A stretch of DNA of 64,000 nucleotides from Candidatus Forterrea multitransposorum CG_2015-17_Forterrea_25_41 (GCA_009392915.1 CP045477.1:32001-96000); one strand, 5' to 3'. Counted from the stretch's first letter, positions 484-46,273 are shown. Made by a program: numbers and translations. The notes: generated by a model from the sequence alone, not told the origin.

Positions 484-2376
484 ATGGACTTATTCGATAA
501 TATTAAAAAACAAATTTCTTCTCTCTTAAATGAGAAAAAAATGTCGTTTTCAAAGATAGAACCTGAAGCTTCAGAGATTGCTATCTATACAAATGACCCT
601 TATTCTTTTTTCAGTAATAAAACAATTGTTGGTGAAATTGCTGATAAATTTAAAAAAAGAATTAACATTAGAACTGAAAAATCATCTCTTATGGATTCAG
701 CTGAAGCCTATAATAAAATAAAAGAAATAATTCCAGAAGATGCTGGTATTAAATCAATTGCTTTTGATGGAGTTTTTTCAGAAGTTGTAATTGAAGCAGA
801 TAAGCCTGGTGTAGTTATTGGAAAACAAGGAGATGTTTCAAAATCAATTATAAAAGAAACAAAATGGATTCCAAAAATATTAAGAGCACCACTTGAACCT
901 TCTGAAATAATTAAAAAAATAAGAGGGTATGCAATTAAAAATAATACTGAAAGAAGACAATTTCTAAAAGAAGTTGCAAAAAAAATATATTCTCCTCCTG
1001 TTAGTAATAAAGAATGGGTTAGAATGACAGCTCTTGGTGGTTTTAGAGAAGTTGGAAGAAGTGCTATACTTTTAGAAACTCCTGATACAAAAATACTTTT
1101 AGATTGTGGAATTAATCCTGCAGATAAAAATGAAGAAGCACCTTTCTTTGGTGTTATAAGATTTCCTTTAGATGAACTTGATGCTGTAGTAATTACACAC
1201 GCTCACATAGATCACGTAGGATTTTTACCATATCTTTTTAGAGCAGGTTATAGAGGTCCTGTATATTGTACAGAACCTACAAAAGATATTATGGCTCTTT
1301 TACTTTTAGATGCAATTTCAGTTTCTGAAAAAACAGGTAGAGAAGCTCTTTATGGAGAAGAAGATGTTAAGGAAGTTATAAAACACTGTATAACTAAAAA
1401 CTTTAGAGAAGTTACAGATATCGCTCCTGGAATAAGACTTACTTTCCATAATTCAGCACATATTTTAGGTTCTGCTTCTGCACACTTACATATAGGTGAT
1501 GGAAAACATAACTTAGTTTATTCTGCAGATATTAAATATGGTTTTACAAGATTATATAACAATATGGATGCAAATTATCCTAGAGTAGATACTTTAATTT
1601 TAGAAAGTACTTATGGTGGTAAACCATTAAATCCTTCTAGAAATAAATCAGAAGATCGTTTAATAGAAGTTTTAAATGAAACACATGATAAAGGAGGAAT
1701 TACTTTAATTCCTGTTTTTTCTGTAGGTCGTGCTCAAGAAGTTATGATTGTTTTAGAAGAATATTTTAGACGTGGAAAATTAAAAGCAGAAAATGTTTTT
1801 ATAGATGGTATGACAAGAGAAGCTTCTTTAATACATACTGTTTATCCTGAATATTTAAAAATGAATATTAAAACTAGAGTTTTACAAAATAATTCTCCAT
1901 TTTCTTCAAAACTTTTTAGATCAGTTGATTATGAAGAAAATTCTAGAGAAAATGTTTTAAATTCTCCTGGTTCAATTATTATAGCATCATCAGGTATGCT
2001 TACAGGTGGACCTTCAGTTGCATATTTTAATGAACTTGCAGATAACCCTAATAATTCTTTAGTTTTTGTTGGTTATCAAGCAAGAAATAGTTTAGGACAA
2101 AAGGTGCAAAAAGGTTTAAAATCAATGATTATTAATGATTCTAAAGGAAAAACAAAAACATTAAATGTTAATCTTAGAATTGAAACTATTGATGCCTTTT
2201 CAGGTCACGCTTATCGTCAAGAGTTACTAAATTATGTTACAAGTTTAAATCCTAAACCAAAAACAATTTTAGTAAATCACGGTGATTCTTGTCCTGAATT
2301 TGCAAGATTTGTTGCAAAGAAATTCCATATTAATACACTTTCAATTCAAAATTTAGAGAGTGTTAGATTAAGGTAA
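484..2376 (+). CDS. Archaeal beta-CASP ribonuclease aCPSF1 (FttA-like): KH domains, metallo-beta-lactamase and beta-CASP
   Basis: 630 aa. It has N-terminal KH-like regions, the metallo-beta-lactamase motif HAHIDHVG, and a beta-CASP C-terminal region. Its position next to the proteasome beta gene is conserved in archaea. Confidence 0.85.
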   Translation: MDLFDNIKKQISSLLNEKKMSFSKIEPEASEIAIYTNDPYSFFSNKTIVGEIADKFKKRINIRTEKSSLMDSAEAYNKIKEIIPEDAGIKSIAFDGVFSEVVIEADKPGVVIGKQGDVSKSIIKETKWIPKILRAPLEPSEIIKKIRGYAIKNNTERRQFLKEVAKKIYSPPVSNKEWVRMTALGGFREVGRSAILLETPDTKILLDCGINPADKNEEAPFFGVIRFPLDELDAVVITHAHIDHVGFLPYLFRAGYRGPVYCTEPTKDIMALLLLDAISVSEKTGREALYGEEDVKEVIKHCITKNFREVTDIAPGIRLTFHNSAHILGSASAHLHIGDGKHNLVYSADIKYGFTRLYNNMDANYPRVDTLILESTYGGKPLNPSRNKSEDRLIEVLNETHDKGGITLIPVFSVGRAQEVMIVLEEYFRRGKLKAENVFIDGMTREASLIHTVYPEYLKMNIKTRVLQNNSPFSSKLFRSVDYEENSRENVLNSPGSIIIASSGMLTGGPSVAYFNELADNPNNSLVFVGYQARNSLGQKVQKGLKSMIINDSKGKTKTLNVNLRIETIDAFSGHAYRQELLNYVTSLNPKPKTILVNHGDSCPEFARFVAKKFHINTLSIQNLESVRLR

Positions 2377-2382
2377 GGTATT

Positions 2383-2877
2383 ATGTATTTTGTAATAACA
2401 GGTTCTGTTGCAAGCGGTAAAACTACGCTTGCACAAGAAGTTAAAAAAAAATTTCCTTTTCAAAAGTTTTTAGTTGTTAATGATAAAGATTTTTCTAAAG
2501 AAAATAATATTGCTATCTTAAATGAAGAAACAAAAGAATATGAAATAGATACTTCACTTCTTTCAAAAAAATGTTTAGAACTTTTAAAAAAGAAAAAAAA
2601 TATTATTTTTGAAGGACATTTGTTTTGTGAAGTTTCTAAACTTTTTTTAAAAAAAATGGATTTTGTTTTTTTATTATTATCTTCTGAAAAATTATTAAGA
2701 GATAGAATGTCTGAGAGAAATTATTCTGTTTTAAAAATTGAAGAAAATATTCTTTGTCATAAGACAAGTTATTTTCAAGAAAAATTAAATTCTAAAAAAA
2801 TAGATTATATTCCTATAGAGGTTTCAAAAGACCTTAAATTAAATTTAAAAAAAATAAATAAATATTTAAAATTATAA
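2383..2877 (+). CDS. Small P-loop NTPase, probable nucleotide/adenylate-kinase-like (Fap7/AK6-like) protein
   Basis: It has an N-terminal Walker A motif, GSVASGKTTLAQEV, and is 164 aa. The specific kinase family cannot be resolved by eye. Confidence 0.45.
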   Translation: MYFVITGSVASGKTTLAQEVKKKFPFQKFLVVNDKDFSKENNIAILNEETKEYEIDTSLLSKKCLELLKKKKNIIFEGHLFCEVSKLFLKKMDFVFLLLSSEKLLRDRMSERNYSVLKIEENILCHKTSYFQEKLNSKKIDYIPIEVSKDLKLNLKKINKYLKL

Positions 2878-2890
2878 AATGTGATAAAAA

Positions 2891-3724
2891 ATGGTTCAAG
2901 CATTAGTTTCTGCAAAAACACAAACTGTTAAAGAAATTAAAAAGAAATCTTCTATTAAAAGAAGAAATAAATTAATTGTTAAATTGATTTTAATAACTAT
3001 TGTTGCAATATTAATTGCATTGATATTAAGCAAAATAGTTGTTGAAACAAGAACTTCTTTTACAAATAATGATATTGACTTTAAATCAGTAAACTTTCAT
3101 ATACATGAAGGTTTTGAAATATTTGGAACTGATAAAAATTATTTATTAGTTTTTAATTACTATTACCAAGATACAAATTATTTATCTTCAGTAATTGATG
3201 GCCTTGTATTTTCTCAATCCATGCTTTCTGCTAAAAATAAAAATACAATTCTTTTAATTTCTGTAATTGATAATGAAAATAATCTTCTTTATTGTCAATC
3301 AAATAATGGAAATGTTTTAGAAAATATTGAACTTACAAGTGAAGAATGTTTATCTCTTTTAGATACTAATCATTCTGTAATTATGGTTAATTATCCTTTT
3401 GGAGATGTTGAAAAATCAGAAGTTGTTTTAAATTTAAATGAAAAATTATTATTAATTAATCCTAAATCAAAAGAATTTGTTTATGACTCTTTATATGTTT
3501 CTTTTAATCAAATGTATAAAGATGCTAAAATGATTGAAGATTCTTTAACAGATATTCAAAATAAATTAAGCACTTCTAAAGAAAAGTCTTTGGTTGATAA
3601 AAATATTATTGATGAAAATATTGTTGATGAAAACTTTTATGATCAAAATATTTTAATTGATGAAAATTTTTCTGATGATAATTCTTTAAACGATGATAAC
3701 TTTTCACAAGATATTAATAATTAA
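2891..3724 (+). CDS. Membrane-anchored hypothetical protein with an acidic C-terminal (I/F)DEN repeat region
   Basis: One N-terminal hydrophobic helix (LIVKLILITIVAILIALILSKIVV). The C-terminus repeats DKNIIDENIVDENFYDQNILIDENFSDDN. Confidence 0.4.
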   Translation: MVQALVSAKTQTVKEIKKKSSIKRRNKLIVKLILITIVAILIALILSKIVVETRTSFTNNDIDFKSVNFHIHEGFEIFGTDKNYLLVFNYYYQDTNYLSSVIDGLVFSQSMLSAKNKNTILLISVIDNENNLLYCQSNNGNVLENIELTSEECLSLLDTNHSVIMVNYPFGDVEKSEVVLNLNEKLLLINPKSKEFVYDSLYVSFNQMYKDAKMIEDSLTDIQNKLSTSKEKSLVDKNIIDENIVDENFYDQNILIDENFSDDNSLNDDNFSQDINN

Positions 3725-3786
3725 ATATTTTTTTAAAAATAACTTTATAAAACAATTTATATTGTTTATGTTCTATAATTATAATT

Positions 3787-5157
3787 ATGTCTTCAATAAA
3801 TCTTGATAAATCAAAAGTATCAATTTATAGAGATACTAGAAAGAAATTACTTTCTCAAATCAAACCTAGTACTTCTCAAAATATAAAAGAAAAAAGATTT
3901 ATTGATAATGTTATTAAAAAAATAGAAAAGATGCCAGGACCACATTTATCTGCTGTTTGTGCAGGTTCTTTTGGAAAAGGTACTAATTTAAAAGATACAA
4001 AAGATTTTGATGTTTTTGTAATTTATCCTCCTTCTCTTGAAAAAACAAAATTTATTGAAGAAGGTTTAATGTTAGGTCAAAAAGCTTTTAAAGGATATTT
4101 TTGGGAAAAAGCATATTCTCAACATCCTTATATAAGAGGTGTAATTGACGGACATAAAGTTGAAGTTGTGCCTGCATATAAAATAGAACCTAATGAACCT
4201 ATAATTTCTGCAGTTGATAGAACTGTTTTACATTTAATGTTTGTTTTAAAAAATATGTCTGAAACACAAAAAGATGAAACTAGACTTTTAAAATATTTTT
4301 TAAAACAAATAGGGTCTTATGGTGCAGATACTTCTGTATCTGGATTTTCTGGTTATTTATGTGAACTTTTAATTCTATTTTATGGAGATTTTATAACTGT
4401 TTTAGAGAATGCTTCAAATTGGCAATATCCTATAAAATTTACTTTACTTAAAGAACAACATGTTAACTTAGCAAGATTTTCTGAAAGCTTAGTTGTAATT
4501 GATCCTATTGATGATACTAGAAATGTAGCATCTGCTGTAAGTTTAAAACAATTAAGTTTATTTATAGCTTCTTCAAGAAAATTTTTAGAAAATCCTTCTA
4601 TTGATTTCTTTAATACTAAAGTTATTCCAAAAGTTACATATCATCAATTAATAGGGAAACTTGAAAATTTTTCACTAGTAATTGTAAGTTTTGAAGTAAA
4701 AGATATGTTAAAAGAAATTATTTGGTCTAAAGTTAAAAGTAATACTTCAAAGTTAATTACTCATTTAGAATTTTCTGATTTTGATATTTTAAAATATGAA
4801 GTTTATCATAAAGAAGGTCAAGATAGATGTTATCTTGTATTATTATTAAATACTTTAGAACTTCCTAAATTTAAAAAAATTAATGGACCTTTAGTTTCTG
4901 ATTTTAAAAGTTCTCAAAATTATTTAACTAATAATCGTTCTGTACTTGGTCCATATATTAAAGAAGATAGATGGTATGTTGTAAGAAAAAGAGATAAAAC
5001 TTCTGCAAAGGCAATAATTTTAGATTTCTCACAAGTCTTTAATTTAAAATCTAAGATTTATTCTGGAACAGAGATCAATGATTTATTTTTAGAAGATGAT
5101 GACTTATCTGAATATTTAACTGATTTTTTTATTACTAAAGAGAAATTTTTAATTTAA
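3787..5157 (+). CDS. cca: CCA-adding tRNA nucleotidyltransferase, archaeal class I
   Basis: 456 aa. The nucleotidyltransferase motif GSFGKGTNLKDTKDFDVFV is typical of the archaeal CCA enzyme N-terminus. Confidence 0.8.
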   Translation: MSSINLDKSKVSIYRDTRKKLLSQIKPSTSQNIKEKRFIDNVIKKIEKMPGPHLSAVCAGSFGKGTNLKDTKDFDVFVIYPPSLEKTKFIEEGLMLGQKAFKGYFWEKAYSQHPYIRGVIDGHKVEVVPAYKIEPNEPIISAVDRTVLHLMFVLKNMSETQKDETRLLKYFLKQIGSYGADTSVSGFSGYLCELLILFYGDFITVLENASNWQYPIKFTLLKEQHVNLARFSESLVVIDPIDDTRNVASAVSLKQLSLFIASSRKFLENPSIDFFNTKVIPKVTYHQLIGKLENFSLVIVSFEVKDMLKEIIWSKVKSNTSKLITHLEFSDFDILKYEVYHKEGQDRCYLVLLLNTLELPKFKKINGPLVSDFKSSQNYLTNNRSVLGPYIKEDRWYVVRKRDKTSAKAIILDFSQVFNLKSKIYSGTEINDLFLEDDDLSEYLTDFFITKEKFLI

Positions 5158-5289
5158 TTTTTTTAGTTATATATAAGTTAATTATTTAATATTAATATCT
5201 TATTTTTTCCTTTTTTATCCTAAGTAATTATAATCTGGTATGTTATTTTAGATTAAGGTGTTTTTTTTTGTACACTTATTTAGGGTTAA

Positions 5290-5500
5290 TATATATATAT
5301 TACACAAATTATAGTTATATTGGATTTGAGACCTTGGAGACAAGTAGTTTCCTAAAGAATGATTTTCAGGTGAGTTTTTTCATCTAGGAGGTGGTGATAA
5401 AGTAATATGACGATAAACGACTCGAACGATAGTTAGGGAAGCAAACCCAAACCAGGTTTATATGGTAAACTGATGTGATTTGAAGGCTTCCCTATCTTTA
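5290..5500. ncRNA. GC-enriched, stem-loop-rich non-coding block (candidate structured RNA, e.g. SRP RNA or other; unresolved)
   Basis: No ORF is predicted here. GC content is locally elevated relative to the flanks, for example ggaggtggtgataaag...cgactcgaacgatagttagggaagcaaacccaaaccagg...gaaggcttccc. There is an inverted repeat gggaagc/gcttccc. I could not match it to a covariance model by eye. Confidence 0.2.
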
Positions 5501-5617
5501 ACAAATATTTTTTCTATTTCTCTAATTTTATTTAAATTCTATAAGCTTTATATATCTTTTCTATATATATTATATATATAGTACCTTTTTTTTATCAAAG
5601 ACTATATGGTAAAAAAT

Positions 5618-5699
5618 GCAGAGGTGGCGGAGTGGTCAAACGCGCCAGCCTTGAGAGCTGGAGCCTTGCGCTACACGAGTTCGAATCTCGTCCTCTGCG
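5618..5699 (+). tRNA. tRNA-Ser (anticodon UGA), class II with a long variable arm
   Basis: Cloverleaf as read: acceptor GCAGAGG/CCUCUGC; anticodon stem CCAGC/GCUGG with loop CUUGAGA; T-arm ACGAG-UUCGAAU-CUCGU; long variable arm. Confidence 0.8.
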
Positions 5700-5730
5700 C
5701 TTTATCTTTTAAAATATAGGAATTTTTATT

Positions 5731-6063
5731 ATGATTAAAGAAAACATTTCTTTTCAAGATTTTTTAAAACTTGATATAAGAATTGGAACAATTGTTGAGG
5801 CTGAAGCTGTTGAGGGTTCTGATAAATTAATAAAATTAATAATTGATTTTAAAGATTTTAAAAGACAGATTTTAGCTGGTATTAAAACAAAATATCAACC
5901 AACTGATTTATTAAACAAACAAATTCCTGTTATTGTAAATTTAGAACCTAGAAAAATGATGGGTTTTGAAAGTCAAGGAATGATCTTAGCTGTTGGAGAT
6001 AAAACTTTAGATGCTTTACTTTTACCATCTGAGCCTGTATCGGAAGGCTCGATTGTACACTAA
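5731..6063 (+). CDS. tRNA-binding domain protein (Trbp111/CsaA/EMAP-II-like OB fold)
   Basis: 110 aa. The pattern DIRIGTIVEAEAVEGSDKLIKL...ILAGIK...GMILAV is characteristic of the Myf/Trbp111 tRNA-binding domain. Confidence 0.7.
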   Translation: MIKENISFQDFLKLDIRIGTIVEAEAVEGSDKLIKLIIDFKDFKRQILAGIKTKYQPTDLLNKQIPVIVNLEPRKMMGFESQGMILAVGDKTLDALLLPSEPVSEGSIVH

Positions 6064-6084
6064 TTTTTTTTTAAAACTAAAAAT

Positions 6085-6166
6085 GCAGAGGTGGCGGAGT
6101 GGTCAAACGCGCAAGCCTGGAAAGCTTGAGCCTCGTGCTACGCGAGTTCGAATCTCGTCCTCTGCG
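6085..6166 (+). tRNA. tRNA-Ser (anticodon GGA)
   Basis: The acceptor, D- and T-arms are nearly identical to the tRNA at 5618. Anticodon stem CAAGC/GCUUG with loop CUGGAAA. Confidence 0.8.
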
Positions 6167-6197
6167 CTTTTTTCTTTTTTAATTTAATATTTATTTT

Positions 6198-6286
6198 GCA
6201 GAGATGGCGGAGTGGTCAAACGCACAAGTTTCGAAAACTTGATTAAGGTTTTTTCCTTTACATGAGTTCAAATCTCATTCTCTGCG
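6198..6286 (+). tRNA. tRNA-Ser (anticodon CGA) with an AT-rich variable arm
   Basis: Acceptor GCAGAGA/UCUCUGC; anticodon stem CAAGU/ACUUG with loop UUCGAAA; variable arm AAGG-UUUUUU-CCUU; T-arm AUGAG-UUCAAAU-CUCAU. Confidence 0.7.
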
Positions 6287-6462
6287 TAGCTGGTTTCGGT
6301 CAGCTAGCACCCAATGATTTTGCGTTTGTTAACGCTTATTTAAACTTTCTTTTTAAAAGAAGTGATTTTCCCCCAAAACTTTTTTTCTTTAAAAATTGTG
6401 TTTTAAAAATTTTTAATCTATTTTATATCTATTTAAAATACTTTTGCCTCTCTTTAATATTT

Positions 6463-7584
6463 ATGACTGAAAAAATGATTGTAAATCCATACCAAGTAGA
6501 AGGAGAAGTTGATTACCAAAGACTTGTAAAAGAATTTGGTCTTCAAGAAATAACTCCTGAAATTTTAGAAAAAATAAAACAAATAACTAAAGGTCTTCAT
6601 CCAATGTTAAAGAGAAAAATCTTTTTTGCACATAGAGACCTTAACTGGGTGTTAGATGAATATCTAAAAGGAAATAAATTTTTTCTATATACAGGTTGTG
6701 GTCCATCAGGTCCAATCCATCTAGGGCATGCATTAGTATGGTATTTTACAAAATACTTACAAGATACTTTTGATGTTGAATTATATTTTCAGTTTACAGA
6801 TGATGAAAAATTTTTATACAAAGATAAACCTTATGAAGAAATACAAAAATGGGTCTATGAAAACATGCTTGATGTTATAGCTATAGGTTTTGACCCTAAA
6901 AAAACATTTTTCATAGTAGACACAAAGCATGCTGGTCTTCTTTACCCAGAGGCAATAAAGGTTGCAAAGAAATTAACTTTTTCAACAGTTAAATCTTCTT
7001 TTGGTTTTACAGATAGCAATAATGTTGGATCTATTTTTTATACCTCTATGCAAGCAGTTCCTTCTTTTTTGCCATCAGTTTTAAAAAAGAAAAACATTCC
7101 TTGCCTTATTCCTCATGCAATAGATCAAGATAATCATTTTAGAATAACAAGAGATATTTTACCAAAGCTTGGTTTTTATAAACCTGCAAGCATACAATGT
7201 TCTTTTCTTCCTCCATTAACAGGAGCTTTTGGAAAAATGAGTAGTACTGGAGAAGCTAAAGGAATATTCATGACAGACTCTCCAAAAGAGATTAAAGATA
7301 AAATAAATAAATATGCCTTCTCTGGAGGACAACCAACTTTAGAAGAACATAGAGAAAAAGGTGGAAACACAGAGATTGACATTCCTTTCCAATATTTAAA
7401 ATATCTTTTCGAAGAGGATGATGAAAAATTAGCAGAGATTGAAAAAGATTATTCTTCTGGAAAGATGTTAACTGGAGAGATTAAAAAATATTTAATTGAT
7501 AAAATAACTGCTTTCCTTTTAGCTCATCAAGAAAGAAGAAAAGATGCTCACAAGAAAATAGATGATTTTCTTTTAAAGGTTTAA
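6463..7584 (+). CDS. trpS: Tryptophanyl-tRNA synthetase, archaeal/eukaryal type (class I; TyrRS not fully excluded)
   Basis: It has the HIGH-type motif GCGPSGPIHLGH and a KMSKS-like KMSSTGE. The 374-aa length fits archaeal TrpRS better than TyrRS. The start is placed at ATG 6463 (MTEKMIV...), because the ORF track start at 6262 overlaps the tRNA-Ser(CGA) gene. Confidence 0.65.
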   Translation: MTEKMIVNPYQVEGEVDYQRLVKEFGLQEITPEILEKIKQITKGLHPMLKRKIFFAHRDLNWVLDEYLKGNKFFLYTGCGPSGPIHLGHALVWYFTKYLQDTFDVELYFQFTDDEKFLYKDKPYEEIQKWVYENMLDVIAIGFDPKKTFFIVDTKHAGLLYPEAIKVAKKLTFSTVKSSFGFTDSNNVGSIFYTSMQAVPSFLPSVLKKKNIPCLIPHAIDQDNHFRITRDILPKLGFYKPASIQCSFLPPLTGAFGKMSSTGEAKGIFMTDSPKEIKDKINKYAFSGGQPTLEEHREKGGNTEIDIPFQYLKYLFEEDDEKLAEIEKDYSSGKMLTGEIKKYLIDKITAFLLAHQERRKDAHKKIDDFLLKV

Positions 7585-7596
7585 ATTAGGTGTTTT

Positions 7597-8364
7597 ATGA
7601 ATTTATTATTTTTAGGATTAGGTAATACAGGTATTTCTATTGCCGATAGATTATCTAAAAATAATAATATATTCTATTATGATGTAGTTAAAAAAAATGT
7701 AGCTTATAAGTATTTACCTTTAACAAAGTTAAAAAAATCTAATTTTGATTATATAATAGTTACACTTTCTTCAATTTCGATATTAAACCGACTTAAATTA
7801 TGCTCTAAATATAATACTACTTATGATTTAAGAAAATATGAGTTGGTTAAAAATAAAAATAGTTTGAAAAAAATTATAAATTACCTCCCTAATTCTAAGG
7901 TAATTGTAGTTTCTAATCCTGTGGATGATATTGTTACTTTTTTATCAAAAAATACTAATTTAGATGTAATTGGTTTTGGGATTTCTTTAGATGCTTTAAG
8001 ATATTCTAATTATTTTAAACAAAAAATTAATTGTATTGGTTTACATGGTTTTTCAGTTCCTTTAAAGGTATTAAAAAGTAAAACTCATTTTTTAAAAAGT
8101 TATTCGGCGGTTGATCTAAAATTATTTAACTCTTTTAAAGTTAATGGTATTAATTATGATCTAGTATCAAAAGAATTTGAATTATTTTTTAATAAACTTA
8201 ATTCAGATAAACAAAATACATTATATTTATCTAAATATATTTCAAAAGACATTCTAGGATTAGAAAATATATCTTTATCTCTCCCTTATTTTGTAAAAAA
8301 AGGAAAAGTAGTTGGTCTTAAACAAATAAAACTAACTAGTCTTGAAAAAAATCTATTAAAATAA
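7597..8364 (+). CDS. Lactate/malate dehydrogenase-family protein, short and divergent
   Basis: It has a Rossmann motif, GLGNTG, and the family signature VIVVSNPVDDIVTFL...VIGFGISLDALRY...IGLHGFSVP (compare SNPVD and GEHGDS in LDH/MDH). At 255 aa it is shorter than the canonical ~310 aa. Confidence 0.5.
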   Translation: MNLLFLGLGNTGISIADRLSKNNNIFYYDVVKKNVAYKYLPLTKLKKSNFDYIIVTLSSISILNRLKLCSKYNTTYDLRKYELVKNKNSLKKIINYLPNSKVIVVSNPVDDIVTFLSKNTNLDVIGFGISLDALRYSNYFKQKINCIGLHGFSVPLKVLKSKTHFLKSYSAVDLKLFNSFKVNGINYDLVSKEFELFFNKLNSDKQNTLYLSKYISKDILGLENISLSLPYFVKKGKVVGLKQIKLTSLEKNLLK

Positions 8365-9013: not shown

Positions 9014-12000
9014 ATGTCCGTAGAGAAATATAAAGCAACAAATGATAAAGATTTATTTGATGAAGTAGAATCTTCTAATAGAAAGTATGTTAATGAAGAT
9101 ACTATTAAAGATATTGAAGATAAATTAAAAAAATCAAGAGAAGAACATCCTTTAGAAGATGTTGAAAATTTTTCTGAAATTGATGATTCTGAAGATGATG
9201 ATTCTGAAGATGATGATAACTTAGATGAAGTTGATTTAGAAGAAAACTCTGAAGATGAAAATTCAGAAGATAATAATTCAGAAGATAATAATTCAGAAGA
9301 TAATAATTCAGAAGATAATAATTCAGAAGATAATAATTCAGAAGATAATAATTCAGAAGATAATAATTCTGAAGATAATGATATAGATGAAGCTGATTTA
9401 GAAGAAGACTCTGAAGATAATAATTTAGAAGAAGATAATGTTGAAAAAGACCTAAATGAAATTGATTCTAAAGAATCAGATTTAAAAGAAGATTTTACTA
9501 AAAACTCAAATATATCAAAAGAGATTACTAAAGATAAAGATATACCTGCTAAAAGTTCAGAAATTATAATTAAACCAGCACTTAAATTCTTAGAAGATTT
9601 ACAAGACCCTAATGTAGTTTATTTAGGTAGAAAAAAATCTGTTTTAAAACAATATGGAAAGATAGCTACAGCATATATAGGAAAAGTTGCTGAAAATCAA
9701 CAAGAAGGCAAACAAGTTAACATAGATGGTCTAAATCCACACGTTATTTTCTTAGATGGTGCTAGAGGAACAGGTAAGAGTTATCTTTTAGGGGTAATAG
9801 CAGAAGAGCTTGCAAGAACAAACCCATATATAGGGCAAATAGTAATTGATCCTGTAGGTGTTTTCTGGTCAATGAAATTTCCAAACAGAGATTCAAAAGA
9901 ATTAAAAATTTTAGAAGAATGGGGTTTAAAGGCAGAAGGTCTTAAAAACTTAAAAGTCTTTGTTCCAGAAGGTATAGTTTCTCAAGTTTCAAAAGATACT
10001 TATGATGACACTTTTTCAATGTTTCCTTCTCTTTTAACTCCAGAAGATTGGTGTTTAACTTTTGGTATTGAAAGATTTTCTCCATCAGGCTTACTTTTAG
10101 AAAAAACTTTAGAGTCTGTAAAGAAAGGATATGTTACAGGTGGAACAAAAGATGTTCCTGATGTTAAAAAAATATCAGCAAAAGGAAATCATTTTACTTT
10201 AGAAGATATTATTAACTGTCTTCAAAACAATTCTGAATTTCAATCTTCTCAAAAAGGTTATAAACCAGATTCTATAAGAGCTTTAGTTTCAAGATTTGAA
10301 GCTGCAAGATCTTGGGGTATATTTTCAGATTCTGGAACTCCTCTTTCAAAACTTTCAAGAGAAAATCAATTAACTGTGCTTGATACTTCTTTTTTAGATG
10401 AAAATATTACTGCTTTAGTTATTGGTATTTTAGCTAGAAGAATTCTTTCTGCAAGAAAACTTCTTGCAAGACAAGAAGCTGTTAAAAAATATGGTGATTC
10501 AACACAAAAAGCAGAAGAACTTTTAGAAATTGAAATTCCTCCAACATGGATGTATATTGATGAAGCACACACTTTAATTCCTTCTGGAAATTCTCAAACA
10601 CCAGCAACTGCAGGAATTATAGAGTATGTTAAGCAAGGAAGAAGACCTGGTTGTTCTTTAGTTTTTGCAACACAACAGCCTTCTGCAATAAACACTAAAG
10701 TTTTATCACAAGTTGATATATTAATCTCAAATAAATTAGTTTTTAATGATGATATTTCTGCAATTCAAAAAAGAATGCCTGCAATAATACCAAAGCAATA
10801 TAAAGAACCAAATTTTATAAAGACTTTGCCTTTTGCAACTGCTCTTGTAGGAGATAGATCAGAAGAAACTTCTAGAGCTTTTATTTTAAGAGCAGCACCA
10901 AGAAGATCTCAACATGAAGGTCGTGATGCAGAAACAATTAGAGAGATTCCTAAAAAAAATAAATCTGAAGTTTTAGAAATTGCTTTTAAAATGGTTTATG
11001 AAAAATTAGAAAAAACAAAAGAAATTAAAGTGTCTTTTGCAAAAGATATTTTAGATGTTATTAATATTAAATATAGAGGAACTGTTGAATATGATGAACT
11101 TTTAGAAAAACTTTTAGAAAAAAATGTTTTACTTAAAGAAGATCTTCTATATCTTAATGAAAATTTTTTCAAAGAATATAATCAAGAAGAAAAATTAGTT
11201 TCTAATGATTCCGAAAATACTGATGAAATAAATTCTTTAGATGAAAATGAGCTTGAAAATATTGAAGAAAATTTAGAACATGTTAAAAGTAGTGTTTCAA
11301 AAGTAAAAGTAAGAAATACTATTGCAGAAAGAATTTCAAAAGCAAATATTGAAGAAATTGCAAATCAAAATATTAAAAAATCTTTATTATTTAAACCAAA
11401 AGAAGAAATTTTAAATATTGTTTTAAAATATAGAACAATTTATAAAATAAGTTATAATGTTTATGATTCACAAGATTCTTTTAAGACAAATACTTGTTTT
11501 GTGGATTCTGTAACTGGTGAGTTTATACATTTTTTAAATGGAGAGTTTAAGATTTCTTCTGGTTTAAATGTTTTAGATAAAATTAATGAAGATTATTTAG
11601 AGATTCTTTATCTTTTAAATAAACAACATACTTTGTTTTCTTTAAATCAAGAAACAGATATTGAAGAAAAAGATTTAATTGAAATGATTGATTCTTTTAA
11701 AGAATTAAATTTAATTACTGTTAAAAATAATTCTGGTATAGATGTTTATAAAATAGATTCAAAAGCTTTTGATATTCCTTTTAACCCGACTATTAAAGTT
11801 CTTTCATCTTTAGATGTTTTACCTTTAAAAAAACAAGATGTTGAGTTTTTAGAATCAATAAACTATTCTTTAAATGTTATTCAAGATAATTTAAAGAAAT
11901 TATGGGGTGAAATTGAATTTACTTCTCTTCAAGAAATCTATTGGCCAATTTGGCAAATTACTTATAATAATAAAGAAGGAAATAGAGTTTTAAAAGTAGA

Positions 12001-12025
12001 TGCTGTAACAGGCAAAAAAATGTGA
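9014..12025 (+). CDS. Large DUF87/HerA-FtsK-like P-loop ATPase with a poly-acidic repeat N-terminus and a ~400-aa uncharacterised C-terminal region
   Basis: Walker A VIFLDGARGTGKSYLLG. Walker B WMYIDEAHTLIP. A HerA-like ATQQPSAINTKVLSQVDILISNKL motif. The N-terminal ~190 aa are D/E/S-rich with (SEDNN)n. There is no recognisable nuclease partner. Confidence 0.6.
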   Translation: MSVEKYKATNDKDLFDEVESSNRKYVNEDTIKDIEDKLKKSREEHPLEDVENFSEIDDSEDDDSEDDDNLDEVDLEENSEDENSEDNNSEDNNSEDNNSEDNNSEDNNSEDNNSEDNNSEDNDIDEADLEEDSEDNNLEEDNVEKDLNEIDSKESDLKEDFTKNSNISKEITKDKDIPAKSSEIIIKPALKFLEDLQDPNVVYLGRKKSVLKQYGKIATAYIGKVAENQQEGKQVNIDGLNPHVIFLDGARGTGKSYLLGVIAEELARTNPYIGQIVIDPVGVFWSMKFPNRDSKELKILEEWGLKAEGLKNLKVFVPEGIVSQVSKDTYDDTFSMFPSLLTPEDWCLTFGIERFSPSGLLLEKTLESVKKGYVTGGTKDVPDVKKISAKGNHFTLEDIINCLQNNSEFQSSQKGYKPDSIRALVSRFEAARSWGIFSDSGTPLSKLSRENQLTVLDTSFLDENITALVIGILARRILSARKLLARQEAVKKYGDSTQKAEELLEIEIPPTWMYIDEAHTLIPSGNSQTPATAGIIEYVKQGRRPGCSLVFATQQPSAINTKVLSQVDILISNKLVFNDDISAIQKRMPAIIPKQYKEPNFIKTLPFATALVGDRSEETSRAFILRAAPRRSQHEGRDAETIREIPKKNKSEVLEIAFKMVYEKLEKTKEIKVSFAKDILDVINIKYRGTVEYDELLEKLLEKNVLLKEDLLYLNENFFKEYNQEEKLVSNDSENTDEINSLDENELENIEENLEHVKSSVSKVKVRNTIAERISKANIEEIANQNIKKSLLFKPKEEILNIVLKYRTIYKISYNVYDSQDSFKTNTCFVDSVTGEFIHFLNGEFKISSGLNVLDKINEDYLEILYLLNKQHTLFSLNQETDIEEKDLIEMIDSFKELNLITVKNNSGIDVYKIDSKAFDIPFNPTIKVLSSLDVLPLKKQDVEFLESINYSLNVIQDNLKKLWGEIEFTSLQEIYWPIWQITYNNKEGNRVLKVDAVTGKKM
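9251..9375 (+). repeat. Near-perfect 15-bp tandem repeat (gaagataataattca) in about 8 copies, encoding (SEDNN)n
   Basis: Seen directly: seven identical 15-mers from 9266 to 9370, with degenerate flanking units. The repeat keeps the reading frame. Confidence 0.9.
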
Positions 12026-12031
12026 TAAAGT

Positions 12032-12328
12032 ATGGTTTTAACTGAAAAAGATTTTATACAAGATACATGTAAAGCAACACCAGGATTTGAATATTATCCA
12101 AAGAAGTTCTTAGAATTAAATGTTTCAAAATTACTCCCTATATTAAAAGAAAATGATTTTTATATATCTAAAGATAATTCTCCTTTTTATCTGCATGTAA
12201 AAAAAAAAGAATTAGAAGCATCTATTTTTTCATCAGCTAAGATAATTATTAAGAATACTACTGTTGAAGAAGATGCTAGTTTATTTTTACTTGATATTTT
12301 AGTTTGTTTAAATAAAGTTATGGAATAA
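12032..12328 (+). CDS. Hypothetical protein (98 aa), probably co-transcribed with the ATPase
   Basis: ORF lying 6 bp downstream of the ATPase stop; no recognisable motif. Confidence 0.3.
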   Translation: MVLTEKDFIQDTCKATPGFEYYPKKFLELNVSKLLPILKENDFYISKDNSPFYLHVKKKELEASIFSSAKIIIKNTTVEEDASLFLLDILVCLNKVME

Positions 12329-13328
12329 TTTTTTTTAAAATTTTTTCCATTCTTTCAATAACTTCTCTTTTTTCTTTTTTTTCAATATATTTTTTATGTC
12401 TTTTAATTATTTCTTTTCTAGCAGCTTCTTTAATTTTCTCTTCATTTATAATTGAGCTTTTAACTGTATTTATGCCCATATCTGTAGGAGATTTATACTC
12501 GTGCATTTTATTTTTTTTTGAAATAATTTTGTTAATTATTTTTTTTAAAATTTTAAAATTTTCAATATCTCTATTATAGTTAATAGCTGTAATTCCATAT
12601 GCTTTTTTATGATAAGGGTCAATAATATTTTTATCTCCAATATCTGCTGTTGCAGCTTCATATGCAAGATTAATAGGATGATTTAAAGGAAGATTAAATA
12701 CTGGGAAAGTTTCAGATTTAAAATATCCTGAATTAATTTTATTTTTTGAATCTAAAAATATTTGTGCTAAACAAATCCCCATTTTTCCTGAATTTGCAAC
12801 TGCACCAATTACAACATTTATTTTTTTATTTGTTTGGATATATGGTTGTTCAATAAATCCTTTTTGTCCTAATATTTCATCTAAATCATTTGGATAGTCT
12901 TTAATTGTTTTTGAGAAATAAACTTTTATGTTTTTCTTTTTCATTTCTTTTTCTAAAACTTTTCCTGAATTTTCATTTTTATATCTTGTTATTACTATAT
13001 CAATTTTTTCAAATTTTTTATGCAATTTTTCAATTTCTTCTAATACTAATTTTCTAAATTCTAGATTACTATTATAATCTCTTCCATTTTCTAGATGTTT
13101 TGAATAAATACAATATATTATTCCTACATCTTTTTTTATTTTTTCAAGAATCTTTACTTTTGTATCTTTTTTATAATCTATTAATACTCTATTTGCATGA
13201 TAGTCTCTTAAAAGATGTCCTCCAAACTCAATATAGACTTTATCAAAGTTTTTAATTCTTTTTTTAATTTCATTTACTTGTAATTGAATATATTTATCTT
13301 CATCAAATGCTATTTTCTTTGTAATCAT
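12318..13328 (-). CDS. Conserved hypothetical protein (336 aa), glycine-rich loop VIGAVANSGKMGI
   Basis: Long ORF with a K-rich C-terminus; the family was not recognised. Confidence 0.35.
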   Translation of the reverse strand: MITKKIAFDEDKYIQLQVNEIKKRIKNFDKVYIEFGGHLLRDYHANRVLIDYKKDTKVKILEKIKKDVGIIYCIYSKHLENGRDYNSNLEFRKLVLEEIEKLHKKFEKIDIVITRYKNENSGKVLEKEMKKKNIKVYFSKTIKDYPNDLDEILGQKGFIEQPYIQTNKKINVVIGAVANSGKMGICLAQIFLDSKNKINSGYFKSETFPVFNLPLNHPINLAYEAATADIGDKNIIDPYHKKAYGITAINYNRDIENFKILKKIINKIISKKNKMHEYKSPTDMGINTVKSSIINEEKIKEAARKEIIKRHKKYIEKKEKREVIERMEKILKKIIP

Positions 13329-13398: not shown

Positions 13399-15465
13399 AT
13401 GTTTTGGTTTTCTTTTTTATATATGTATCTTAATAAAAATGCTATTTCTCCATTAATAGCAAGCATTTTAATTATTGTTGTAGTTGTTGCAGTTATTGGT
13501 GTGATTCTATTATGGGGTAAAAACTTTACAAATGAAAGTTTAACTTCCACTTATACTTTTTCACAAGATAAAACTGTTTCTGATTTTGTTTGGCAAGATG
13601 ATATTACTGGTAAAAATCTTTTTATAAAAAACACACATATATCATTAAGTAAAACTATTATTGGTTATAAAATAAACAGTTCCTTAGATTATGCTTATCT
13701 TAATAAATATCATTATCTTGATGAATCTTTTTTATTATCTAAAAATTCCATTGCTCAATTAACTTTAGGTTGTGTTCCAGAAAAGAATTTTTCAATTGAA
13801 CTTTTAACAGACTCTAATGAATATATTTCTTTTCCTGTCACTTCTAAGTTTTTTGATCCTTCAGAATGTACTTTTTCTTTTTCAATAACTTCTCCTTTGG
13901 AAAATTCAATCAATGCTTTAAATTCTAGTATTTCATTTACTTCTGAAATTTTAAATTCTTCAGGTACTCCTTCTTGTACTTGGATTTCTTCAATTGATGG
14001 TACTTTTTCAACATCTTGTGATGCAACTTATTCTTCTTTATCTTCTGGTTCTCATGATATTAATTTAGTTGTTGAAGATTCTGGTGATATTTTAACACAA
14101 TCAACTTCAATTATTGTAAAAGATTCTTTAGAAAGTATTATTTCTACTCCTTCAAATTCATCAAATCATTTATTTAGTGATACAATTTCATTTAGTGGTA
14201 CTGCAGATAATAATTTTGGTTCTCACACTTGTTCTTGGACTTCTTCTTTAGATGGTTCTCTTTCAAGTGATTGTAGTTTTAGTTCTAGTTTATCTCCAGG
14301 CACACATACTATTACTTTACAAGTAACTGATTCTCTTGAAACAGCATCTTCAAATATTTCTATAGATGTTTATGCTTTATTAGTTGCTTCTGTTTCTCTT
14401 CCTGCTAATAATTCTACAAAATCTTTAGGAAGTCCTATCTCTTTTTCATCAAGCATTTCTGGAGGCGATGGATCTTATTCTTGTAGTTGGACAGATAATG
14501 GTTCTCCTTTAAGTTCTAGTTGTTCATTTAGTCATACTTATCCACAAGGAAGTTGGTCTGAATATCAAGATATGCCTCAAGGTAGAGATTATCATGATTG
14601 TGTAGGTGTTGGTGATAAACTATATTGTTTTGGAGGAGATGATTCTACTTATAATGTAGAAAGAACTACTCAAATTTATAATTCTACAACAAATACTTGG
14701 TCTTTAGGTGCAAATATGCCTGCAGATAGAGAGCTTCCAGCATGTAGTTATTATAATGGAATAATTTATTGTATAGGAGGATTTAATAGTTCTTGGGATT
14801 ATGTTAATTCAAATTATGCTTATAATATTTCTACAAATTCTTGGTCTAGTAAAACTTCTATGCCAACAGTAAGAGCTGAACATGATTGTACTGCCTTAGA
14901 TGGAAAAATTTATTGTTTTGGTGGAAATAAAGATGGTGGAGGTGCAAGTAATCTTCTTGAAATATATAATATTTCAACAAATTCTTGGTCAACAGGTACA
15001 AGTTCACCTTCAGGAAAAGCAAATCATAATTGTGAGGGTTTAAATAATAAGGTTTATTGTATTGGTGGTACAACTACTACTTTAATATATGATGTTTTAT
15101 CTGATTCATGGTCTACAGGTACAACTATCTCAACATCAAAATCATCTGGAGCTTCTGATTTATATGGTACTAAAATTTATTATGGAGGAGGTTCTTCTGC
15201 TGCACTTTTAGTTTACGATACTGTTTTAAATAGTTGGTCAACTCTTGCTAGTTTACCTTATTCTAACAGATCTTATATAGGTTGTGGAATTGCAGATAAT
15301 ACTTTTTATTGTGCAGGAGGAGATTCAAGTCAAGGTAGAGAAACATACATGGATAAATTACATGGATATTCTATAGGTGCTACAGGAACACATGAAATTG
15401 AATTAAATGTAAGTGATGGTTATGGTCAAACTGCTTCTAATACAATAAATATTAATGTTCAATAG
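13399..15465 (+). CDS. Archaeal pilin-N (class III signal peptide) protein with Cys-containing Ig-like repeats and a Kelch-type beta-propeller
   Basis: The N-terminus NKNAISPLIASILIIVVVVAVIGVILLW matches the archaeal type IV pilin N-terminal domain. There are four repeats of ...SCSWTxxxDGSxSSxCSFS.... Kelch-like repeats follow (YCFGG...YN..TN.WS, YCIGG..., KIYCFGG...). Confidence 0.6.
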   Translation: MFWFSFLYMYLNKNAISPLIASILIIVVVVAVIGVILLWGKNFTNESLTSTYTFSQDKTVSDFVWQDDITGKNLFIKNTHISLSKTIIGYKINSSLDYAYLNKYHYLDESFLLSKNSIAQLTLGCVPEKNFSIELLTDSNEYISFPVTSKFFDPSECTFSFSITSPLENSINALNSSISFTSEILNSSGTPSCTWISSIDGTFSTSCDATYSSLSSGSHDINLVVEDSGDILTQSTSIIVKDSLESIISTPSNSSNHLFSDTISFSGTADNNFGSHTCSWTSSLDGSLSSDCSFSSSLSPGTHTITLQVTDSLETASSNISIDVYALLVASVSLPANNSTKSLGSPISFSSSISGGDGSYSCSWTDNGSPLSSSCSFSHTYPQGSWSEYQDMPQGRDYHDCVGVGDKLYCFGGDDSTYNVERTTQIYNSTTNTWSLGANMPADRELPACSYYNGIIYCIGGFNSSWDYVNSNYAYNISTNSWSSKTSMPTVRAEHDCTALDGKIYCFGGNKDGGGASNLLEIYNISTNSWSTGTSSPSGKANHNCEGLNNKVYCIGGTTTTLIYDVLSDSWSTGTTISTSKSSGASDLYGTKIYYGGGSSAALLVYDTVLNSWSTLASLPYSNRSYIGCGIADNTFYCAGGDSSQGRETYMDKLHGYSIGATGTHEIELNVSDGYGQTASNTININVQ

Positions 15466-15517
15466 ACTTTATATAAAATAAATATGTTTTTAAACATTAA
15501 CTCTATATAATTATATA

Positions 15518-16375
15518 ATGAACTATAAAATTATATTTTTATTTTTAACATTAATTATATTAACTCCAGGGATTTTTTCTCATGTTAATTTATCAGTAGA
15601 TCCTTCTGTTTCAAATAATACTGTTTATTTATCAAAAAATATTTCAAAAGATGTTTTATTTAATTATACTTCAAATTATTCTTCAACAATTAATAATACT
15701 TATAGAGCTGAATATGATTTAAAAATATATTCTCAAGAACTAAAAGAAATAGATTTATCTTTATCAAAAACAGAAGAATATTTTGTTTCAGATGTCTTTT
15801 CATCTTTTGCTTTAAATATAAGAAGTTTAAATTATATTGATCAAACAATTAATTTAAGAATAAAAGTTTCAGTCTATGATTCTTTAAATAATTTGGTTGA
15901 TAGTGATTATTTATTTTTAAAAATAATTTCAAATAATTCTGAATATGAATTTTCAGAGTCTCCAATAAATAAAGTTCCAGAATATAAAGGTTATTCTTTA
16001 TCTAGAGATAAGATGATACTTTTAAATTATTTAGATAAAGATAAGATTTCAATTAAAAATCATGTAGATTATTCTTTTGTATATGATGTTAATTGTACTT
16101 CAAATAGTAAAGATCTTTCTTTAGATTTAAGATATGATGGAGATAATAAACATATTTTAGAAGTTTCAATAGCTAATAATTCTGTTCAAGAAGATTTATT
16201 TTATATATCTTGTTATGCTTTTAATAAAGATGATATTAAAGACATTAGAACAATTACTGTTAATTATTTAAATCAAGATATTAATGTTAGTGATGAAACT
16301 ATTATTGAAGAAGAAGTTATAGAAGATAACAAAATTAAAACTTTTTTTAAAAATATTTTTGAAAAATTAAAATAA
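15518..16375 (+). CDS. Secreted hypothetical protein (signal peptide, N/S/D-rich)
   Basis: N-terminal hydrophobic signal MNYKIIFLFLTLIILTPGIFS; no catalytic motif. Confidence 0.4.
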   Translation: MNYKIIFLFLTLIILTPGIFSHVNLSVDPSVSNNTVYLSKNISKDVLFNYTSNYSSTINNTYRAEYDLKIYSQELKEIDLSLSKTEEYFVSDVFSSFALNIRSLNYIDQTINLRIKVSVYDSLNNLVDSDYLFLKIISNNSEYEFSESPINKVPEYKGYSLSRDKMILLNYLDKDKISIKNHVDYSFVYDVNCTSNSKDLSLDLRYDGDNKHILEVSIANNSVQEDLFYISCYAFNKDDIKDIRTITVNYLNQDINVSDETIIEEEVIEDNKIKTFFKNIFEKLK

Positions 16376-22527: not shown

Positions 22528-23136
22528 ATGTCTTATAAAATACAAAATTTAGTTGCATCTTCTAATCTTGAAACTACATTAGATCTTTATAATCTTGCAG
22601 CTGCAATACCTGATGTTGAATACGAACCAGAACAATTTCCAGGAGCTATATTTAAACTTAAAGAACCAAAAGTAACTTTACTTTTATTTAAGAATGGAAA
22701 ATTAATAATCTCTGGAGCTTCAAATGAAGATGATATTGTTGCAGGAATTAAAAAAGCAACAAAGTTAATTAATGAAATTCAAAAAGAAGTTAAAATTAAA
22801 AAATCAGTAAATTATACCATTGTTAATTTAGTTGCAACTTCAAATCTTAATAAACCAGTTGATTTATTCCAAGCTGCAGTAACTTTAGATGATATTGAAT
22901 ATGAACCAGAACAATTTCCTGGTGCAATAATTAGAATTCATAATCCAAAAATTACAATTCTTTTATTTAAGAATGGTAAAATGATTTGTGCTGGTGCAAA
23001 ATCAGAAGCAGATATTAAGAAAAGTATTACTGTTGTAAAGAAATTATTAAAAGACAACAATTCTGAAGGTGAAGAAAAGTTATCTTTTAAACCAGAAAAG
23101 AAAGCAATTGCAAAGAAATCAGTTAAAAAGAAATGA
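22528..23136 (+). CDS. tbp: TATA-box binding protein
   Basis: Two direct repeats, each with NLVASSNL...EYEPEQFPGAI...LLFKNGK...GA. Confidence 0.9.
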   Translation: MSYKIQNLVASSNLETTLDLYNLAAAIPDVEYEPEQFPGAIFKLKEPKVTLLLFKNGKLIISGASNEDDIVAGIKKATKLINEIQKEVKIKKSVNYTIVNLVATSNLNKPVDLFQAAVTLDDIEYEPEQFPGAIIRIHNPKITILLFKNGKMICAGAKSEADIKKSITVVKKLLKDNNSEGEEKLSFKPEKKAIAKKSVKKK

Positions 23137-46100: not shown

Positions 46101-46273
46101 GAGCTAAAAGAAAACAAGAAACTAAATCAGTTTTAGAAACACAAGAAAAAATAAAAGAAGAAATTAGAAAAGATAATTTTTCTAATATTACTAAGTCTGA
46201 GATTATAATAGGAAATAAGCCTATTATAAAGCCTGCAGAACCAAGACAGATTACTTTAGGTGAGCTTGATTAA
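43130..46273 (+). CDS. Large secreted cell-surface protein (S-layer/adhesin candidate) with a C-terminal TM anchor
   Basis: 1047 aa. Signal peptide, a Tyr-rich N-terminal module, a PNPGGDDPTGDDPN linker, then long beta-rich S/T/N-rich repeats. C-terminal hydrophobic helix GFIFAIVLILLIALIIFLIVYG plus a basic tail. Confidence 0.55.
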   Translation: MNYKYFFVFLLVVLFSSMVFSYTIGFDYAEVRTTSYPNYLNYQYAHYYDNIDLRYGVYGSGISSPVTIIVSPKVYGITTTGQRVFVHNIQTHSFSMNPSSFYTYSYNPMFSFDPAYQSYEVVLDLQSSDGSFNNSVSRYVYSQGTNPNPGGDDPTGDDPNVVSCDDFYVSGMEDIYLDEDSREYYNLYLVNSVDLPLTITSVTVSPNNPTNLEIEDITYPFTVSALQTRSAQIELFTDTVSSDYSNSFQIEVKGKYDNSLTCEKTYNVNYRILDAELENNGSCSDIRILDDYFTMSDNSSKTFEIEVSNASQDYYFEVDDIDLDTTNDSIIEASVRNTIDKIYTDSSKILKINVSSDDTSFYRTEKIDLELTGYLKRENREDKKCRIREDVSIRVSPDSSTGNTSNECDDIKIYTRDVFQDSQITENYSLQEGFYIYNGTNKKFTVSGINYKDNTMYADIFSKSFDYTLYPRSSNALNFDIRTSEVSENKLSNAEISIQGYFEGGLSCSYSDITSNFNLTIREENDFCSNVGIYDDSFVEGENYFTVYNNTNKDFTVNDIISQNSVNSNVGVIDSSFKVLKDSQKTFRVGSSGNGSFELLAKGVFSDGTSCDYTQTSSGYFNSDSGYDFSDTSCEFEFNYPNVKYISLNGDSLNFDFRNLTGKSGEIRLSAVGAVIEDPIIKFSSYSSFNKEIDLLNIKNPKMVLYTIEIYGCSKKSYFTNLYPLGNSIQGDVSFLTYPSNLISTKDKFISSFSLKNSSSFSEDVEIKFSGFTSAFNFVSSPYPLNPNTFSSSDNVSTVTINPNSTKNIYFGVDVLENAEYKKYNGYIEVYSNNKLLFKEPLSIDRSITTNNLLVNTMVEKTSVKNTVLLTFTFENKLPDLTRELYLSFEDENSFEVDGNRNISVAPLSVLERSFTVKYNEGSLFKYNLIDTDNSSLAYSGEVDLKEIDNSSNLLSGFFTLSDTKGFIFAIVLILLIALIIFLIVYGDKSRAKRKQETKSVLETQEKIKEEIRKDNFSNITKSEIIIGNKPIIKPAEPRQITLGELD

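Follow-up and report, generated by a model that had tools for sequence, protein, structure and literature searches.

In a 64,000-nucleotide stretch of the chromosome of Candidatus Forterrea multitransposorum CG_2015-17_Forterrea_25_41 (GCA_009392915.1, CP045477.1:32001-96000; hereafter the window), a complete open reading frame (ORF) at 9014..12025 on the plus strand encodes a HerA-clade ATPase of 1003 amino acids (aa) with an N-terminal acidic tail and a predicted C-terminal DNA-binding module. The protein is a HerA-like ATPase carrying a previously undescribed tail, in which a winged-helix (wHTH) domain is enclosed by two PepSY-like domains. We read it as a soluble, chromosomal, housekeeping DNA motor of the HerA clade with built-in recognition of DNA or of a partner, serving genome maintenance, and we put the probability of this reading at roughly 0.55. 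DNA translocation is the most reasonable role, given an intact catalytic set, a HerA-like fold and the presence of two wHTH domains. The initial annotation, made from the window sequence, had left the choice between a DNA-translocation and a defence ATPase; the evidence below favors the former and speaks against the latter.

The motor core spans residues ~189–640 (9578..10933, plus strand). The Pfam profile DUF87 (PF01935, the HerA central domain) matches residues 249–477 with 46.7 bits against a cutoff of 23.2, and likewise matches all homologues scanned. An AlphaFold2 (AF2) model of residues 185–1003, built on 102 sequences, has a mean predicted local distance difference test score (pLDDT) of 87.7. 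When the full model was searched against the PDB with Foldseek, the top 50 matches were all HerA-type ATPases (E values from 3e-17 to 4e-13), the best being the Thermococcus HerA–NurA complex (9x1m), the Sulfolobus (4d2i) and Deinococcus (7wrw) proteins and the defence HerAs. At the sequence level, likeness to the solved HerAs is limited to a stretch of ~80 residues spanning Walker B and the sensor strand. The PADLOC profile mad8, which describes a short HerA-like ATPase, matches the core end to end with a modest score (55 bits), and the PADLOC HerA profiles give weak matches to residues ~445–594 only.

A large insert separates the two Walker motifs of the core. Walker A reads GARGTGKS (residues 249–256; 9758..9781) with G249, R251, G252, G254, K255 and S256 invariant, and Walker B reads IDEAH (residues 515–519; 10556..10570) and is itself invariant. 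These are followed by R543–R544 in QGRRPG (10640..10645), a predicted trans-acting arginine finger, by the strand motif ATQQPS (residues 552–557; 10667..10684) and by VLSQ (residues 563–566), all on the plus strand. In alignments of 28 and 102 homologues the key residues of all five motifs are invariant. An alignment with the solved HerA 8xau places the GRR of QGRRPG opposite EGRKYG; R455/K456 of 8xau is the reported trans-acting arginine finger (PMC11291478), and R543 does not vary. Since the motif residues are invariant across the homologue alignments and R543 aligns with a reported finger, the catalytic set is complete and not degenerate, which bears out the initial assignment to the HerA/FtsK superfamily with a full motif set. 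Only ~55 conserved residues lie N-terminal to the Walker A P-loop, and a HAS-barrel was not detected with Pfam in the window protein at E ≤ 0.1 or in six homologues at E ≤ 0.01. The ATPase has no transmembrane helix, its maximum 19-residue hydropathy being 1.33.

The C-terminal ~400 aa had initially been described as lacking any recognizable motif; they in fact comprise a wHTH domain, an acidic linker and a PepSY–wHTH–PepSY module. The first wHTH domain (residues ~650–714; 10961..11155) comes directly after the motor and is assigned on topology only, from the H-S-H-H-S-S order of elements in the AF2 model. A second acidic linker (residues ~715–763; 11156..11302) is 31% aspartate or glutamate (D/E) and is predicted to be disordered, with pLDDT below 50 at model residues 534–579. 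The module that follows consists of a first PepSY-like domain (11303..11557), a second wHTH domain of the TrmB/MarR/ArsR type (11558..11758) and a second PepSY-like domain that closes the protein (11759..12022), all on the plus strand. Modelled alone with AF2, residues 764–1003 reached a pLDDT of 96.7 and a predicted template modelling score (pTM) of 0.90, and the model shows a beta-alpha-beta-sheet domain, a winged helix and a second beta-alpha-beta-sheet domain in that order; this topology agrees with a PepSY fold for the flanking domains. Pfam PepSY (PF03413) matched the flanking parts in 12 of 23 members (best E 6.6e-8); the match lies above the gathering threshold in homologue P0080 (29.1 bits against a 24-bit cutoff) and is sub-threshold in the window protein (20.7 bits, E 5e-4). 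The central part was matched by TrmB, HTH_27 and MarR in 14 of the 23. In an hhalign comparison the first and second PepSY-like domains prove homologous (probability 90%, E 1.6e-6), and the module arose by internal duplication. The module is rigid in the model, and no solved structure matches it as a whole. The non-standard architecture that had been suspected is therefore real, and consists of a wHTH domain and a PepSY–wHTH–PepSY module appended to the motor.

The acidic repeat tail at the other end was also recognized correctly. The first ~188 aa are ~40% D/E and start with a conserved peptide, MSVEKYK..D.FDE (9014..9073, plus strand), defined by alignment of homologues and by regular expression. 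The peptide is followed by an acidic linker, presumed disordered (9074..9577), within which a 15-bp tandem repeat of ~14 copies (9172..9382), 96% identical in a 30-bp register, encodes SEDNN/SEDDD units. In 77 of 118 homologues the peptide motif matches within the 60 N-terminal aa, and a variant, VE..D[IL]FD[DE]V[FL]G, is found elsewhere; in most of the 118 the region before the core measures 46–310 aa, and its median net charge is about −20. Because the extreme N-terminal peptide is conserved despite linkers of differing length, the tail is translated and is not an artefact of annotation. Residue 12 of a Hadarchaeales orthologue aligns with residue 190 of the window protein, so that this orthologue has no tail, and peptide and linker are therefore a lineage-variable addition. 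The peptide is probably a short linear interaction motif. Neither a second copy of it nor FtsZ was found elsewhere in the window.

The family is not an oddity of the window genome; it is common in uncultured archaea, which makes it less of a surprise and gives it more biological weight. At least 595 homologues are present in the protein database, and the best 120, mostly full-length and 44–82% identical, carry the labels archaeon, Diapherotrites or Iainarchaeum. When one genome per GTDB species was scanned, relatives turned up in 267 stretches, and nearly all of the 80 loci listed from these bear the names Iainarchaeum, ainarchaeum, Diapherotrites or just archaeon. This places the window in an Iainarchaeota (Diapherotrites, DPANN) archaeon. 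Using the Hadarchaeales member as the seed, we recovered full-length orthologues of 730–850 aa, at 37–50% identity, from Hadarchaeales, MSBL1, Methanofastidiosa, Theionarchaea, Methanomicrobia and Diapherotrites. Compared with the cores of the Hadarchaeales member and of intein-bearing members, including one from Micrarchaeota, the ATPase core is 45–60% identical. When 1.84 billion representative proteins were searched with a profile of the C-terminal module, 383 matched at E ≤ 1e-3, and the module lies C-terminal to a HerA-like ATPase in 8 of the 10 module proteins scanned with Pfam. Short forms of 520–670 aa, Nanoarchaeia proteins included, were among these ten, and one of the ten contains an intein. 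Two ATPase-bearing long forms (1300–1470 aa) also contain DUF835, one of them together with a SAP DNA-binding domain; a 910-aa protein combines the module with DUF835 and SAP with no ATPase detected, and in the 436-aa protein P0243 the module is joined to a PLD-type domain.

LAGLIDADG-type inteins interrupt the ATPase in homologues P0165, P0191, P0209 and P0403, and in P0165 and P0209, where the site was mapped precisely, the intein sits immediately after the GKS of Walker A. Inteins are found mostly in essential proteins of replication, recombination and repair, and their position in the P-loop hints that the host gene is essential.

We next turn to genomic context, for which neighbouring ORFs were clustered across 88 loci and ~95 related loci were inspected in all. 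The window itself is ~25% G+C and is an ordinary archaeal chromosome, encoding also a CCA-adding-like enzyme, a class I tRNA synthetase, aCPSF1/FttA, AglB, Nre, enolase, a Hef-like helicase and TBP. No neighbour is conserved upstream of the ATPase in the 88 clustered loci. On the downstream side, three neighbours recur, namely a convergent GlmS/GlmM/GlmU cluster, an HTH/S_layer_C gene and a small TBP-like ORF, and the other housekeeping neighbours across the loci include tRNA synthetases and SMC/ScpAB. The ATPase lies near XPD, Alba and S17e in Nanoarchaeia, near MCM, a ParA-like protein and amino-acid biosynthesis genes in Hadarchaeales, and near TGT and a Hel308-like helicase in Methanofastidiosa. 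A 505-aa DUF8179 gene begins 3 bp after the orthologous ATPase in Methanofastidiosa (loci L094/L095, 9430..10947) and may be a lineage-specific partner. SMC is encoded within 4–6 kilobases (kb) of the ATPase in 11 Iainarchaeota loci and in loci L092 and L096 (for instance at 18286..21252 in L004, at 13115..16442 in L096, where ScpA and ScpB follow, and at 1..1605 in L092); it is absent near the ATPase in the window, in the close clade and in L091. The linkage to SMC is suggestive only.

The lack of an adjacent nuclease, noted in the initial annotation, extends to the related loci. No nuclease gene adjoins the ATPase in the window or in the ~95 related loci, NurA, Mre11 and Rad50 have no match among the window ORFs scanned, and PADLOC matches neither of the ORFs flanking the ATPase. 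NurA, Mre11, Rad50, Sir2, DUF4297 and membrane-pore genes, several of which had been proposed as neighbours to look for, are not among the recurrent neighbours identified in the 88 loci. These results bear first on the strongest alternative, namely that the protein is a helicase for DNA repair or end resection whose nuclease (Mre11–Rad50, a NurA-like enzyme or a PLD protein) is encoded at an unlinked site, and which replaces or supplements HerA–NurA where repair is reduced. The HerA-like fold agrees with such a role, as do the inteins, which are typical of replication and repair proteins, the PLD-type domain, possibly a nuclease, to which the module is fused in P0243, and an XPD helicase that adjoins the ATPase in three short-form loci. 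In one of the loci, L092 (7001..12341), a short-form member, a convergent XPD helicase and a canonical NurA and HerA (DUF87) pair lie within 5 kb in that order, the member being 2 kb from the pair. However, the NurA there is paired with the second DUF87 gene, a canonical HerA, so that the two systems coexist and no simple replacement has taken place. Because this separate pair stands 2 kb away, the family is a distinct paralogue coexisting with canonical HerA–NurA and not a variant of it; the C-terminal half likewise did not prove to be a known HerA accessory domain with a NurA gene of its own nearby. The HAS-barrel, through which canonical HerA contacts NurA, was not detected, and ~95 loci are without an adjacent nuclease. 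We therefore regard the repair alternative as rather unlikely.

The ATPase ORF terminates with TGA TAA, and the next ATG, at 12032, lies 6 bp past the stop. It opens a 98-aa ORF (12032..12328, plus strand) that had been pointed out in the initial annotation and that is a real, conserved gene, probably co-transcribed with the ATPase. It has 22 homologues, 86–111 aa long (61 aa in one fragment), in which DFIxDxCKxTPGFEYYxKK and YISKDNSPF are strongly conserved. Of 18 members tested against Pfam TBP, 10 match (best E 1.6e-5), and jackhmmer started from the family recruits the two-repeat TBPs of the window (the genuine TBP of this genome, at 22528..23136 on the plus strand) and of locus L001 at E ~1e-23. 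The direct score of the hidden Markov model (HMM) to TBP is weak, at 12.8 bits, and covers the 'lliFssGKiiitG' strand-turn region. On the strength of the Pfam matches and the recruitment of genuine TBPs, we assign the ORF as a single-TBP-domain protein. A likeness to the PepSY-like halves was considered and rejected (hhalign probability < 1%). A read-through fusion with the ATPase was rejected as well: the two ORFs share a frame in the window but are separated by TGA TAA, and they are in different frames in L001.

In the closer Iainarchaeota clade (≥ 54% identity; ~21 loci) this ORF always follows the ATPase directly; taking together the 27 loci that have it, the median distance between the two genes is 19 bp. 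Among the distant Iainarchaeota, at least five loci place it ~5 kb downstream, behind the HTH/S_layer_C gene. Nine loci from other lineages lack it in the vicinity of the orthologue. Co-transcription in the closer clade is likely, and a universal partnership of the two genes is not supported. Monopartite TBP-domain proteins have been described only in Thermococcales and Halobacteria, those of Thermococcales being ~95–100 aa long, with a single repeat divergent from the genome's own TBP and of unknown function (Brindefalk et al. 2013, PMC3597702). The 98-aa protein, likened to them by description, has a similar length and a single TBP repeat, and differs in coming from a DPANN phylum and in its fixed place downstream of a HerA-like ATPase in one clade.

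The TBP-like gene gives some weight to a second alternative, in which the ATPase regulates or remodels DNA-bound proteins, displacing transcription factors or chromatin, or translocates polypeptide or RNA, acting through its wHTH and PepSY domains and the TBP-like partner. The wHTH domain belongs to a type found in the transcription factors TrmB and MarR, PepSY domains usually mediate protein–protein regulation, and some homologues are labelled 'predicted transcriptional regulator' by the Joint Genome Institute (JGI). The position of the TBP-like gene in ~21 loci fits this too, but its absence from the nine loci outside Iainarchaeota and its distance of ~5 kb in distant Iainarchaeota show that it is not a core partner. 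All characterized HerA-clade motors, moreover, act on DNA. We consider a remodelling role quite unlikely.

On the far side of the 98-aa ORF, and overlapping its 3′ end by 11 bp, lies a 336-aa DUF1846 gene on the minus strand (12318..13328). Its match to NCBIfam PRK13663, a model of 494 positions, is confined to the N-terminal 333, and given its length and this partial coverage it is a truncated or split form. Beyond it, on the plus strand, a 688-aa surface protein (13399..15465) has an archaeal pilin-like hydrophobic N-terminus (judged by eye), PKD repeats and a Kelch propeller; a 285-aa ORF without a family match follows, and the pair spans 13399..16375. Two further ORFs of the window, both on the plus strand, may be mentioned. 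One, of 1047 aa (43130..46273), has no Pfam match at E ≤ 1e-5. The other, a synthetase of the tRNA-synt_1b type (6262..7584), has a called start that adds ~67 hydrophobic residues before a likelier start (MTEKMIVNPY...), probably an artefact of ORF calling.

The surface-protein locus, ~1.4 kb from the ATPase, was part of the initial annotation and does exist, but a link to the ATPase did not stand, since none of the recurrent neighbour families of the 88 clustered loci corresponds to the Kelch/PKD protein. It would matter if the protein were the ATPase of an apparatus for DNA transfer or uptake (conjugation-, Ced- or Ted-like), by which a DPANN archaeon with a small genome exchanges DNA or scavenges that of its host. 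The organism is indeed a DPANN archaeon, and VirB4/TrwB-type ATPases belong to the same superfamily; the short-form relatives give sub-threshold TrwB/TraG matches at the level of the P-loop only. In the window protein, however, VirB4, TraC and TrwB profiles have no match and a transmembrane segment is lacking, and its conserved neighbourhood includes no gene for a membrane or pore protein. Conjugation, which the initial annotation had named among the usual settings of such modules, is thus not supported. Orthologues are equally conserved in the non-DPANN Methanofastidiosa, Theionarchaea and Hadarchaeales, and no conjugative-plasmid relative carries the module. We judge a DNA-transfer function very unlikely.

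Mobile elements hold little of the family. Phage records contain no match, viral contigs contain a single 38-residue match to the P-loop, and plasmids carry distant ATPase-only relatives, none with the C-terminal module; an origin from a mobile element was rejected on these grounds. The best plasmid relative is a 389-aa ATPase-only protein, 30% identical, on plasmid NZ_CP098519 of Haloplanus sp. HW8-1 (L097). It comes after a weakly PglZ-like protein and one annotated 'BREX system ATP-binding', and the whole stretch (1714..8152) may be an undescribed defence cluster. An anti-virus role for the window protein itself, as a HerA-effector or MADS/mad8-like ATPase, can draw on this plasmid relative and on the weak PADLOC HerA and mad8 matches, but it is highly improbable and already largely refuted by a score of 29.3 bits against a cutoff of 800 for NCBIfam HerA_antiphage (NF042943), by the lack of Sir2, DUF4297 or any other effector adjoining the gene in any locus, and by stable housekeeping synteny in 267 species with cross-phylum conservation at 37–50% identity, where defence genes are normally patchy and mobile.

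A housekeeping DNA motor for genome maintenance therefore remains our preferred reading; a literature search found no description of the family. Several observations weigh against this reading. Any transfer of mechanism from HerA is approximate, because the family has QQP in place of the canonical QRP and its sequence similarity to the solved HerAs is confined to the Walker B–sensor region. The C-terminal module may bind protein rather than DNA, since PepSY domains are usually extracytoplasmic regulators and not DNA binders. The gene context offers no consistent functional partner, SMC being close in some lineages only and the TBP-like ORF adjoining the ATPase in one clade only. Finally, the ATPase-only Haloplanus relative among BREX-like genes indicates that this type of core is also used in defence-like settings.

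By analogy with the solved HerAs, the motor would work as a hexameric ring that moves along double-stranded DNA by ATP hydrolysis, with K255 of Walker A, D516/E517 of Walker B and R543 as trans arginine finger as the predicted catalytic residues. Its recognition apparatus would be on the same chain as the motor, taking the place of the docked nuclease of canonical HerA or the effector of defence HerA. The wHTH domain and the PepSY–wHTH–PepSY module could serve to load the ring onto chromosomal DNA or to orient it there, or else to hold a partner that is bound to DNA. Speculatively, the most plausible task of the motor would be chromosome segregation or organization, or the processing of recombination intermediates. 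In Iainarchaeota the N-terminal peptide and acidic linker might tether the motor to a partner or act as an autoinhibitory DNA mimic, and in the closer clade the single-TBP-domain protein, co-expressed from the next ORF, might be a DNA-binding accessory; both ideas are speculation. A more specific version, in which the family is the housekeeping DNA pump of many archaea, an FtsK analogue loaded through its wHTH domains and PepSY pair, with the Iainarchaeota peptide recruiting it on an acidic tether to the division or SMC machinery and the half-TBP bending or marking DNA, is an unlikely extension.

If the family does serve chromosome segregation or recombination, it would fill a gap, as to our knowledge archaea have neither FtsK nor RuvAB, and the gene is kept by DPANN archaea with small genomes. 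On our reading the gene represents a third, uncharacterized use of the HerA motor, self-contained and with its own DNA-binding tail, and it is conserved across at least six archaeal lineages at the 37–50% identity given above. Two domain assignments made here can be tested, namely a cytoplasmic PepSY–wHTH–PepSY module without a solved counterpart and a single-TBP-domain protein in a DPANN phylum.

Two settings are known for HerA-type motors: DNA-end resection, where the partner is a nuclease, and phage defence, where it is an effector. FtsK/SpoIIIE belongs to the same superfamily. FtsK is laid out analogously to the window protein: a targeting element at the N-terminus comes first, then a long linker of low complexity, a RecA-like motor and a winged helix; in FtsK the C-terminal winged helix (its gamma domain) is the part that reads DNA polarity. 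The window ATPase is structurally closer to HerA, and the Pfam profile FtsK_SpoIIIE has no match in it (16.7 bits against a cutoff of 24 in the best homologue, P0056); the likeness to FtsK is thus one of architecture and not of membership. Among the defence HerAs, the ATPase of DUF4297-HerA (8xau) is the best sequence match among solved structures. Unlike Sir2-HerA, DUF4297-HerA and the MADS protein mad8, the window family has no effector partner and is housekeeping and vertically conserved, and the ATPase-only Haloplanus relative lacks its C-terminal module. Canonical HerA (Sulfolobus 4d2i, Thermococcus 9x1m) has the same fold and is the best structural match (Foldseek E ~3e-17). The two have in common DUF87, Walker A, a DEAH Walker B, a GR[KR] arginine finger and, presumably, a hexameric state. 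Whereas canonical HerA has a HAS-barrel, NurA, Mre11 or Rad50 as neighbours and QRP, the window ATPase has no detected HAS-barrel, no such neighbour and QQP, and adds to the shared motor ~360 aa of wHTH domain, linker and PepSY–wHTH–PepSY module.

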